A DNA stretch of 55,236 nucleotides from an uncultured Sulfurospirillum sp. (GCA_964651755.1 CAZYZD010000003.1:1-55236), one strand, 5' to 3'; shown: positions 1 through 3,060, numbered from the stretch's first letter. Program-made: numbers and translations. Notes: a model not told the origin generated them from the sequence alone.

Positions 1-19
1 ATATTCCCTTTAAAGAGAG

Positions 20-38
20 TTTTGAGATAATCTCAAAA
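20..38. promoter_or_regulatory. Perfect 9-1-9 inverted repeat (TTTTGAGAT-A-ATCTCAAAA), possible protein-binding site in the CRISPR leader region
   Basis: The palindrome is seen directly in the sequence; its function is inferred. Confidence 0.4.
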
Positions 39-94
39 TATATTAGTTTTGCGATGGCGCAGAACGAGAGACTTAAAACACTTCAGTGTACAAT

Positions 95-190
95 CTCGAA
101 CCGACACATGAGATGTATTGAAATTTTTTAAGATGCTCCAAAAGTAAATCAATCCCAGCTCTCGAACCGGCACATAAAACATATAAAACC
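95..190 (+). CRISPR. Single-spacer CRISPR mini-array: repeat 95-124, spacer 125-160, degenerate terminal repeat 161-190
   Basis: Repeat CTCGAACCGACACATGAGATGTATTGAAAT (30 nt) ends in the ATTGAAA(N) handle typical of class 1 (I-B/III-like) repeats. A second copy 66 nt later, CTCGAACCGGCACATAAAACATATAAAACC, matches 21/30 (14 of the first 15 nt). The spacer is 36 nt. Confidence 0.72.
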
Positions 191-216
191 TACTATCGCA
201 CTTCTTACCTCCCTCC

Positions 217-240
217 TGCTATAATGCTTCCAAAAAGGAG
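217..240 (+). promoter_or_regulatory. Extended -10 promoter (TGCTATAAT 217-225) and SD (AAGGAG 235-240) of the cytochrome gene
   Basis: Matches the Campylobacterota sigma70 TGnTATAAT motif, suitably placed before ATG 247. Confidence 0.65.
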
Positions 241-246
241 GTTTGC

Positions 247-1563
247 ATGAAGCGATGGTGGGGTTGGTTTTTGGTGGCTGGGGTGGTGTTTTTTGGGTAT
301 CTCTACTTTTATACCGATCTGTTTAAACTGCTTCCTTTTTACCGTCAACTGACTAAGCCGCATGTATCGCTTAAAAAAGATCTCCAAGAGCCTACGCAAA
401 AAGGGGCTGATTTTGTCGGCTCGAAGAAGTGTAAAACGTGTCATGAAGAGAAGTTTTCGCAGTGGTCGCACTCAAGGCATCCGAAGATGATTCAAGATAT
501 TCGCAAAGATCCTTCCGTTGTGGTGGCTGACTTTTCGACACTGCCGAAGGATGCGACGTTTACGCTAAAAGATGCTGTCTATACGATCGGTGGGAAGTTC
601 AAGCAGCGTTTTATGATACGCAAAGATTTCAACGGCAGCGAAGATTATGTGCTGGGAAATTATCAGTGGAATGTCGAGACGCAAAAGTGGCAGGGTTTCA
701 AGCCGTGGCACTACTGGTATAAAGATGCTTACCCTCATGATAACGCCGAACTGCCTACCTCCAAAGTGTGTGACGGATGTCACTTTACGGGGTTTATGTC
801 GCGTCAAAAACGTATCGAAACGGGGATAGCATGCGAGTCATGTCACGGACCGGGGTCTAACCATGTTAAAGATCCGGAAAATAGAGTCTACCAAGCCTCT
901 TTACATGATCCTGTCCGTCAAAACGAGGTCTGTTTGCAGTGCCACATGCGAAACCGAGACTATCGCCTCAAAGAGCACAACATTTCAGATATCTACGGCG
1001 ATGCGAGGGATTATCCGCTGGGGTTTGAAGCGGGTAGGGCGCTGGTGGACTATAAGCTGGTCGCACCGTTTACGATGGGTCATGAAACAAAAGAGTTCTA
1101 CGCTAACGGAGCAGCCAAAAAGAACCGCACACAAGGAAATGAGTTTGTTCACTCTGCCAAAGGCAAACACGGCATCACATGCATCAACTGCCACAACCCT
1201 CACACCCTAGCCCCTACCGCGCAAAACAATAGTGGCAATAAGCTCTGCATGAAGTGTCATGCTTTCGGTTCGGTGATCGGACCGCATCAAAAGAGTTTGC
1301 AAGCCCACACCCACCACAAACCCGACTCCAAAGGCTCTCTGTGTGTTGAGTGCCACATGCCCAAAACAGGCAGACACACCAAAAAATCACCCCTTACGGT
1401 ACGGAGCCATCTTTTTGGCTTTACAACACCTAAAGAGACTCTAAAGTACGGCATGCCAAAAGAGACCAACGCATGTTATGCCTGCCATAAAAACGATCGT
1501 GACATGCAGACTCTCCAAAATGACTTAGAGAAGTGGGGTATACTCAGCTGGGAGAAGCAGTAG
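247..1563 (+). CDS. Membrane-anchored octaheme cytochrome c (cytochrome c554-like multiheme family)
   Basis: Eight CxxCH motifs (CKTCH, CDGCH, CESCH, CLQCH, CINCH, CMKCH, CVECH, CYACH); FVGSxxCxxCH..W..S.H and GIACESCHGPGS patterns; hydrophobic N-terminus. Confidence 0.9.
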   Translation: MKRWWGWFLVAGVVFFGYLYFYTDLFKLLPFYRQLTKPHVSLKKDLQEPTQKGADFVGSKKCKTCHEEKFSQWSHSRHPKMIQDIRKDPSVVVADFSTLPKDATFTLKDAVYTIGGKFKQRFMIRKDFNGSEDYVLGNYQWNVETQKWQGFKPWHYWYKDAYPHDNAELPTSKVCDGCHFTGFMSRQKRIETGIACESCHGPGSNHVKDPENRVYQASLHDPVRQNEVCLQCHMRNRDYRLKEHNISDIYGDARDYPLGFEAGRALVDYKLVAPFTMGHETKEFYANGAAKKNRTQGNEFVHSAKGKHGITCINCHNPHTLAPTAQNNSGNKLCMKCHAFGSVIGPHQKSLQAHTHHKPDSKGSLCVECHMPKTGRHTKKSPLTVRSHLFGFTTPKETLKYGMPKETNACYACHKNDRDMQTLQNDLEKWGILSWEKQ

Positions 1564-1595
1564 GGATATTTTGCTTTGCTGCCTCTTGACAAAAT

Positions 1596-1704
1596 CTATG
1601 CTTCTTTGAACTCATCTGTATAGCGTGGTGGCATTACTCTTATTTCTTGTATTATTATGCTCTATCAGCGCATATAAAAGCGTCTAGGTTTTTTGGGCAT
1701 TCCA
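1596..1704 (-). mobile_element. Decayed left end of an IS3-family insertion sequence (terminal-repeat-like end plus truncated orfA start)
   Basis: The minus strand begins TGGAATGCCCAAAAAACCTAGACG (1704-1681), resembling IS3-family TG-ended inverted repeats. It is followed by micro-ORF 1634-1596, MPPRYTDEFKEA*, resembling the RYxxEFK start of IS3 OrfA. Confidence 0.5.
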
Positions 1705-1716
1705 CTACTCCATAAA

Positions 1717-3060
1717 TCACTCCGCAGAACTATTGTTCTCTATCTCCCTGTATCCATCTTCTCTTGTGATCATCGTACCGTTGACGATATGTTTTTCTTT
1801 TGAAAATGTTGTTTTATCATAATAGCCAAGCAAAGAAGTGATGAACTGTGACAGGTGGTAGTGTGAGGCTATCTTCTTTGTCTCTTTGGGTAGTTTACTG
1901 TTTGCGGTGGCGAAAAAGGGGACTTCGTAGATTGTCGGGGCGAAGCTGTTATGTCCCCATCGACCGTTTTCCCCGGTAAATTCGCCGTGATCCGATGTGT
2001 AGAGCAGGATGAATGGTTTTTGGCTTTTTTTCAGGTAGTTGATTATCTTTGCATAGAGTTGAAAACTGTAGTCGAGTGATTTTTGATAATTTTGCTTTGC
2101 AGAAGCAGATTTTTTCCCCGGAAAGTAGCGATAGGGTGAATGTTGACCGATCTGCTGCAATACAATAAAATTTTTCCGGCTGAGGTTTGCCTCTTTGAGT
2201 GCATCAAGGAGGTAAAAGTCATACTTTGGCGAGCGCTCTTTTTTGTCGAAGCTTTGATACTGCTCTATCATCCCGGTTTGCAGATAGGGGTTGATGTACT
2301 GAAGTGCTGCGGGGGTCTGGAGGGAAACAAAAGCGGTGTGGTAACCGTTTTTGCGGGCAAGCCGGAAGAGGTTGGTTTGATTATCTCCAGTAAGATGCAG
2401 AGGGTTGTTTTTTGCATTTATGAGCAGGGGAAGACTTACATCTGTGTTGGTGGCACCGGCATAGATTTTTTTATAGAAAAGATGCAGGTTTTTGAGTTTT
2501 TCTTCGACATAGGTATTGTATTTCATACTTTCGCCTATGATGAGGATGATATTTTGCATGCCTTCGTTTCTGGGATAGAGGGGAGTTTCCTGGGTACAGA
2601 AGCTGTTTGGACTACTTTCATGAAGTATTAACTCTGGCAGGATTCGAAGCTGGGGCAGGGCAAAAAAGCCGAAAACAAGGGCAAAAAAAGCGCCTTTTTT
2701 CCCATAGAGAAGGGGTGCCTTTTTCTTTTTCACAATCAATAAGATAATCACTGAAAAAGAGAGTATAGGTATCCAGAACATTTGCCAGAATGCAAAAAAA
2801 GTTTCAAATGTTTCAGGCATATGTGTCATAAAGTTGTAGATATCACTGCTTTGCCATTCTCGTTGAAAGTAGTGAAAAAAGAGCAGGTTGCATAGTGTCA
2901 GGAGCGCAACAATCACCAGAAGAGTACGGGGTAGGAATAGTGAGAGAAGCACATAAACAATGCTTTCTGAAAATGTTATTTCATGTTTTATACCATAGGT
3001 TGCGGCTATAAAAAAAAGAGCGATGGCAAATGCATACAAAGAGGGATAAAAACGTTTCAT
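1717..3060 (-). CDS. Phosphoethanolamine transferase / sulfatase-like membrane hydrolase (EptA-like)
   Basis: N-terminal TM helices; IILIIGES, ATNTDVSLP, GQHSPY and YTSDHGE motifs of the alkaline phosphatase/sulfatase superfamily. Confidence 0.8.
   Translation of the reverse strand: MKRFYPSLYAFAIALFFIAATYGIKHEITFSESIVYVLLSLFLPRTLLVIVALLTLCNLLFFHYFQREWQSSDIYNFMTHMPETFETFFAFWQMFWIPILSFSVIILLIVKKKKAPLLYGKKGAFFALVFGFFALPQLRILPELILHESSPNSFCTQETPLYPRNEGMQNIILIIGESMKYNTYVEEKLKNLHLFYKKIYAGATNTDVSLPLLINAKNNPLHLTGDNQTNLFRLARKNGYHTAFVSLQTPAALQYINPYLQTGMIEQYQSFDKKERSPKYDFYLLDALKEANLSRKNFIVLQQIGQHSPYRYFPGKKSASAKQNYQKSLDYSFQLYAKIINYLKKSQKPFILLYTSDHGEFTGENGRWGHNSFAPTIYEVPFFATANSKLPKETKKIASHYHLSQFITSLLGYYDKTTFSKEKHIVNGTMITREDGYREIENNSSAE

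Follow-up and report, generated by a model that had tools for sequence, protein, structure and literature searches.

In the passages of PMC4869251 that describe CRISPRDetect, the motif ATTGAAA(N) at the 3′ end of the repeat marks the direction of a CRISPR array, and repeats are said to decay at the leader-distal end. Deletions of whole CRISPR-Cas loci have been documented experimentally as well: for the Staphylococcus epidermidis escapers, the relevant part of PMC3784566 describes deletions of 65-306 kb, mostly IS- or homology-mediated, in which cas genes and spacers are lost in one event and after which deleted and undeleted forms are found in one population. A different kind of small unit is the regulatory creA/creR element of type I-B, I-E and V-A systems, which, in the cases set out in the relevant part of 10.1101/2023.03.10.532045, has two degenerate flanking repeats and lies between cas genes, away from the array.

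We analysed a stretch of DNA of 55,236 nucleotides from an uncultured Sulfurospirillum sp. (hereafter the window; G000:C3:1-55236), which belongs to a 155-contig draft genome (2.2-Mb assembly, 92% complete) and whose base 1 is the first base of contig C3. Close to this end lies a two-repeat unit that a first-pass annotation had presented as a solitary single-spacer CRISPR mini-array. Because base 1 of the window is a contig end, the DNA upstream of the unit is limited to 94 bases, and its solitary status can therefore not be judged from contig C3 alone. A "solitary mini-array" 94 bases from a contig end should be read first as the tail of an array, and contigs from sister strains settle the matter quickly. 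The features at this end of the window are listed below, where C44 is another contig of the same draft genome and L041 is one metagenome contig containing the same spacer.

Positions 1-85, plus strand: 5′ fragment of cas6 that begins within codon 15 and ends at the second base of codon 43, matching C44.
Positions 3-131, plus strand: reading frame of 42 aa, open at its 5′ end, which leads out of the cas6 fragment across the junction and R1 and stops at a TAA (129-131).
Positions 86-94, plus strand: nine bases, GTGTACAAT, between the cas6 fragment and R1; identity with C44 ends at 85 and identity with L041 starts at 95.
Positions 95-124, plus strand: R1, an intact CRISPR repeat, CTCGAACCGACACATGAGATGTATTGAAAT, of a type I-B family, with the 3′ end ATTGAAAT.
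Positions 125-160, plus strand: spacer of 36 nt, the oldest and trailer-proximal one, at the same position in L041.
Positions 161-190, plus strand: R2, a decayed terminal repeat with 21/30 matches to R1, identical in L041.
Positions 191-1563, plus strand: downstream flank, a short intergenic stretch and a 438-aa ORF (247-1563) for a multihaem cytochrome c with eight CxxCH haem-binding motifs.

The coordinates and letters that the first-pass annotation gave for R1, the spacer and R2 are exact, and its description of R2 as kept in the 5′ half and decayed in the 3′ half agrees with our count of 14/15 and 7/15 matches to R1, respectively (9 substitutions overall). It was also right that no repeat lies one period upstream within contig C3, where we found one full and one decayed repeat and no series of three or more. 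A repeat search of the window gave a spacing of 66 for the R1/R2 pair, and the exact 30-mer of R1 is expected 0.00 times in shuffled sequence. The search of the genome for the same repeat that had been suggested yielded no further copy of R1, either in the window or in the assembly at ≤3 mismatches; at ≤9 substitutions across the whole assembly the sole extra match, on C69, was at chance level. Folding predicted a weak 4-bp hairpin for R1 (−1.8 kcal/mol, no better than shuffles) and none for R2. Rfam, searched with window 1-400 at E up to 1, returned neither CRISPR-DR nor any other family, a result that carries no weight against a CRISPR repeat because relatives have real arrays. Downstream of the unit, the 438-aa ORF was recognized as a multihaem cytochrome c since it has eight CxxCH motifs in its codons; the protein is 100% identical to translated L041 DNA, and homologues at 67-73% identity are present in 4 of 10 congeners. 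A simple in-house array finder detected no other CRISPR array in the assembly. Elsewhere in the assembly, a tandem repeat with a 65-nt period (G000:C86:9300-9446) runs off its contig end; it was discarded as a CRISPR array, as the stretches between its 20-nt exact cores are also alike.

Repeats within 3 mismatches of R1 occur in 8 of the 31 other genomes of the family. Six of these eight genomes have arrays of 3 to 40 copies with a period of ~66, namely G011, which is of the same genus (14 copies), G002 (10), G003 (22, spread over two contigs), G022 (40), G028 (6) and G025 (3), and the array repeats of these six are 1 to 3 bases apart from R1; G012 and G031 have one match each. On contig C35 of G022, the 40-repeat array directly follows an eight-ORF cas operon on the same strand, in the order cas6, a 585-aa ORF, cas7, cas5, cas3, cas4, cas1 and cas2. 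Seven of the eight ORFs match NCBIfam Cas models at E 1e-10 to 1e-118 (cas6 TIGR01877, E 1.3e-20; cas1b, E 4e-118; and cas7/Cst2, cas5b, cas3, cas4 and cas2), and the 585-aa ORF, in the cas8b position, has no NCBIfam or Pfam match. These observations tie the R1 repeat family to a type I-B cas operon. Both orientation marks used in the CRISPRDetect passages of PMC4869251 are present in the window, as R1 ends in ATTGAAAT and the decayed R2 lies downstream. The proposal that R1 is a Cas6-type class 1 repeat is thus borne out by the operon adjoining its family in G022: the repeat is genuine and lies on the plus strand.

L041 places the unit in its array context. Identity between the two sequences begins exactly at base 95 of the window, and across window 95-2160 L041 is 99.18% identical (17 mismatches in 2066 positions, no gaps), with the same spacer and an identical decayed R2. 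Upstream of R1, L041 continues through a spacer, a repeat, a spacer, a repeat and a partial further repeat to its contig end, and R1 is identical to the three full repeats that can be read in it. Because regular repeat-spacer units precede R1 in L041, the R1-spacer-R2 unit at window 95-190 is an ordinary trailer end, here of a type I-B array. The first-pass annotation had held that the unit was not simply the tail of a longer array and that a long array immediately upstream would make it an ordinary trailer end; in L041 the same unit ends just such a longer array. It had also read the preserved 3′ part of R1 and 5′ part of R2 as the portions needed for a functional crRNA. These preserved halves are the normal look of a trailer end, because the last repeat is likewise decayed in the G022 array, as is the second repeat in G031, and decay at the leader-distal end is the usual state described in PMC4869251. 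Among the three options that had been offered, "just a reduced array" comes nearest to the truth, and the CreA/CreR-type and element-borne options are not sustained (see below).

What sets the window apart from L041 lies upstream of base 95. Aligned to G000:C44:61-145 in reverse complement, window 1-85 agrees at 84 of 85 bases, the sole difference (T at window 44, C in C44) being synonymous in an Ile codon. On C44, this stretch is part of an ORF that starts 75 nt after the uvrA stop and runs off the contig after 62 codons. The 62 residues have matches in 12 of the 31 other genomes at E up to 0.01, all homologues being Cas6 proteins of 236-253 aa, and window 1-85 aligns to Cas6 residues 16-42 of G011 and G022; the G011 homologue matches the Pfam Cas6 family (PF01881, 2.5e-9), and the G022 homologue is the cas6 that heads the operon. 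Judged by these alignments, window 1-85 represents a second copy or allele of the cas6 start found beside uvrA on C44. The open frame at 3-131 departs from Cas6 after residue 42 in the alignment and is a chimeric reading frame, incidental and with no expected function.

No leader is present upstream of R1. As canonical leaders we took the 150 bases that precede the array in each of G011, G003 and G028; these agree with one another at 60-69% and have clear blocks in common, and window 1-94 is 38-49% identical to them. On these values, and with 1-85 being cas6 coding sequence, window 1-94 was rejected as a leader. Window 60-94 was likewise rejected as a self-targeting spacer derived from cas6, as the cas6 identity spans 85 nt and no repeat lies at 30-59. 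The cas6 fragment also includes a near-palindrome at window 20-38 (TTTTGAGATAATCTCAAAA; BLAST self-match 18/19).

The search for other cas genes returned little. With the eight G022 Cas proteins as queries, tblastn against the assembly recovered the C44 stub, the 28-residue piece in the window and a short cas4-like match on C4. Models for cas6, cas1, RAMP and I-B cas7 had no match in the assembly, where, at 92% completeness, absence is unproven, and the only trace of a cognate Cas6 and Cascade in this 92%-complete genome was the 62-codon cas6 stub at the end of C44. The earlier remark that no cas genes lie downstream of the unit stands for the families tested, with the addition that bases 1-85 are themselves part of cas6. 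The match on C4, near the start of that contig (G000:C4:~150-284), corresponds to the N-terminal part of Cas4 (PF01930, E 3.3e-8, profile positions 1-37 of 160), its frame departing from Cas4 after ~40 residues, and constitutes a second broken cas gene in G000. Immediately before it is the end of an ORF that by eye resembles a RelE/ParE-type toxin.

Compared with a type I-B trailer end, the window is therefore both familiar and unusual. It is alike in its 30-nt repeat ending in ATTGAAAT, 36-nt spacer and period of 66, in its decayed last repeat (as in G022, G031 and the arrays described in PMC4869251), in the I-B operon adjoining the repeat family in G022, and in the identical unit that ends the L041 array. 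It differs in having one full repeat, with nine bases and a cas6 fragment in place of the next spacer, in being without a leader, and in belonging to a bin where cas genes beyond the 62-codon cas6 stub were not found. The cas6-repeat junction is the sole point of interest of the locus, and it probably records the loss of the CRISPR-Cas locus in part of a vent population.

To characterize this junction, Logan contigs of four public runs (X1-X4) were aligned to window 1-1200. Six public runs contain the stretch in total, none of them recorded as RNA. In X2, a 69-nt unitig (Logan k=31, depth 38.7) equals window 56-124 with 0 mismatches and is the exact span of the 31-mers containing the nine junction bases; it includes 30 letters to the left of the 85|86 boundary, one short of the 31-letter bridging rule. 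The same run also has a record that matches up to base 85 and then continues for 42 nt as the C44 allele, a continuation of only 42 nt where C44 itself ends 60 nt past the junction point; beyond these points the population may vary further. The join of the truncated cas6, the nine bases and R1 is real DNA in at least one run, beside a continuing cas6, X2 being possibly not independent of the source sample. The dominant X2 contig over window 99-566 (depth 57) has a different last spacer, and the junction unitig stops at R1; this contig has the cytochrome flank in common with the window, and even the trailer end of the array thus varies between strains. At window 131-178, the dominant contig shows a shorter last spacer and terminal repeat, with 28 other letters and 9 gap positions. 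X1, the best holder, is of low depth (5-9) and has no Logan contig over window 1-80; one of its contigs has a canonical leader end (...AAAGCCCGAGATTTTCGTC) directly before a repeat, with a loose end at 95. Coverage in X3 and X4 is confined to the repeat and portions of the cytochrome gene; neither these gaps nor the one in X1 were given any weight. A 45-mer across the junction was not found in genome_contigs (species-representative genomes), and no contig spans a molecule from uvrA to R1, C3 and C44 overlapping by 85 nt with one mismatch. The bases at 86-94 probably derive from the 3′ end of a former spacer or were filled in where a deletion was joined; they correspond to none of the 12 spacers listed for X1 and X2, nor to the penultimate spacer of L041.

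Our preferred interpretation, held with moderate confidence, is that the contig is a deletion variant in which the cas operon, the leader and most of the array have been lost, leaving a scar and not a device. The ancestral order would have been uvrA, cas6, cas8b, cas7, cas5, cas3, cas4, cas1, cas2, leader, array and cytochrome gene, and a single co-linear deletion may have begun at cas6 codon 43 and extended through the penultimate spacer. Such an event would have taken out the remainder of cas6 together with the other seven cas genes, the leader and all spacers but one, amounting by analogy with G022 to ~8.1 kb (cas6 start to cas2 end) plus the array, and would have left uvrA, the cas6 fragment, R1, one spacer, the decayed R2 and the cytochrome gene. 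The cas6 fragment and the repeats share one strand and follow each other as they do in G022, which a simple deletion would demand. We infer that in this variant window base 1 is preceded by uvrA, the arrangement that would make it a deletion. The assembly graph would branch where the deleted and the continuing cas6 forms part, both coexisting in the sampled population, and this branching would explain why C44 and C3 both end there with an overlap of 85 nt. A precedent exists in the genus: contig C66 of G007 carries uvrA (C-terminus 94% identical), an AAA-ATPase-like gene and a cas6 stub (L034:1501-1713), all on one contig, and this stub, of 70 codons, follows Cas6 to about residue 66 and gives way to AT-rich unrelated DNA and a small ORF; no operon accompanies this fixed stub. 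Near the cytochrome homologues of G016, G008, G012 and G013, neither uvrA nor the other neighbours of the window were seen, and this comparison with CRISPR-less congeners was given no weight on whether uvrA and the cytochrome gene adjoin.

The relic left by such a deletion might be transcribed from the cas6 promoter as a cas6 fragment-R1-spacer-R2 RNA. Sigma-70-like sites upstream of the cas6 start on C44 include one 10-of-12 site, the count of 2 being at chance level (shuffle mean 1.7), and no sigma-70-like promoter was found in window 1-400. Even if transcribed, the relic should yield no working crRNA, because no Cas6 or Cascade was found in the genome, and it is presumably inert. The event would resemble the S. 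epidermidis escapers in the loss of cas genes and spacers at once and in the coexistence of deleted and undeleted forms in one population, as described in the relevant part of PMC3784566. Unlike those 65-306 kb deletions, it would begin and end within the locus, at cas6 codon 43 and at the end of a spacer, with neither an IS nor a long stretch of homology in sight, and it is deduced from metagenome contigs, whereas theirs were observed in isolated mutants. The vent population appears to carry both a continuing cas6 allele and a form without cas genes, leader and nearly all spacers, which fits the known picture of frequent, cheap CRISPR-Cas loss and calls for no new mechanism. The feature is genuine, yet of an ordinary and familiar kind.

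Metagenome assemblies commonly break or mis-thread at CRISPR arrays and strain-variable regions. The locus could accordingly be intact, with a longer array, and the cas6-R1 join a rearranged minority molecule or the result of an assembler misled at the repeat, for instance if the true junction lay at another array repeat and the assembler walked into the terminal unit. The position of the contig start inside the shared 85 nt, the other last spacer past the repeat in the dominant X2 contig, the canonical leader end before a repeat in X1 and the longer array in L041 would all suit this explanation. However, the junction k-mers are present at depth 38.7 in the independent Logan k=31 unitigs, and the join itself is therefore real DNA; assemblers with k >40 would moreover need reads that link the nine bases through the 30-nt repeat into the spacer. 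A dominant intact locus should also have given a contig of ~8 kb, yet cas8b, cas7, cas5, cas3, cas1 and cas2 are all missing from the bin. On balance we consider an intact locus unlikely.

The join could also have arisen by duplication, a copy of the cas6 5′ end having been inserted before the last repeat with the full operon, leader and array still upstream. Two copies of the 85 nt with one synonymous difference would fit a pair of paralogous copies, and the left boundary of the inserted copy would be hidden by the contig end. This scenario nonetheless needs two events where one deletion suffices, and it sits poorly with a bin that has no cas genes other than the stub, with the plain array at the same position in L041 and with the fixed, operon-less cas6 stub of the congener G007. 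We regard duplication as distinctly unlikely.

If the preferred deletion is accepted, it is conceivable, but to us quite improbable, that locus loss beside uvrA is a recurrent, standing on/off polymorphism in these hydrothermal-vent bacteria and that the retained unit acts as a landing pad. Were this so, break points would cluster in the first 40-70 cas6 codons, the variants being the window at codon 43, the G007 stub at ~66-70 codons and the continuing cas6 allele of the population sampled here. What is retained, namely the cas6 start, a single repeat, the spacer and the decayed repeat, would remain under the cas promoter and could serve as a homology landing pad through which the full cas-array cassette could be regained by recombination from neighbouring cells.

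A regulatory role had been raised in the first-pass annotation, namely a crRNA-like mini-array of CreA/CreR type that guides Cascade to repress a promoter. The unit has one spacer between two repeat-like elements, a type I-B link and a cas6 piece adjoining it in contig C3, and the parts kept, 3′ in the first repeat and 5′ in the second, resemble the pattern described in the relevant part of 10.1101/2023.03.10.532045. In contrast to that pattern, R1 is not degenerate but a perfect array repeat, and in its intact form the unit does not lie between cas genes but is the last unit of a regular array, as in L041. The spacer shows no partial complementarity to the cas promoter: its longest word shared with the cas6 promoter and stub region (C44:1-600) is 8 nt, equalled in 229/500 shuffles, and its matches to the flanks are no better than chance (162/500 and 69/500 shuffles). 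The suggested comparison of the spacer with the host genome, phages and plasmids produced no target either, with no match at ≤10 substitutions in the own genome outside the locus (only three 14-mers), no exact match in IMG/VR or genome_contigs (species-representative genomes), a best and partial match at E 0.4 among phages and no match among plasmids; an absent target is unremarkable for an old trailer-end spacer. With Cascade, the effector, not found in the assembly either, a CreA/CreR role is highly improbable, and a new class of regulatory crRNA is not supported.

Single-spacer CRISPR arrays without cas genes do occur on mobile elements, but the idea, also put forward earlier, that the unit travels on a phage, a plasmid or another mobile element is barely credible here, with flanks consisting of a cas6 fragment and a chromosomal cytochrome gene, a flank that is 99.2% conserved in the strain with the longer array (L041), and a spacer without a match in IMG/VR, phages or plasmids.

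Two relatives have isolated repeats of the same family. In G031 (contig C38; L009:1-189), a comparable unit of repeat, spacer and decayed repeat is found 93 nt from the contig start. We dropped this locus as an example of the same event, as a dispersed repeat present in 3 copies in the genome makes up its first 53 nt, and similarity of the contig start to cas loci was not found. The two further copies of the dispersed repeat (92-94% identity) are near contig ends on C19 and C26, and the element probably marks a mobile element in or beside the array. In G012 (contig C144; L005, reverse strand, 1501-1530), an orphan repeat with 1 mismatch to R1 stands alone in the interior of the contig, a second repeat not being recognisable. 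Upstream of it lie transposase-like fragments and two small paired ORFs, RelB/YafQ-like by eye, and downstream is the AAA-ATPase-like gene that follows uvrA in G007.
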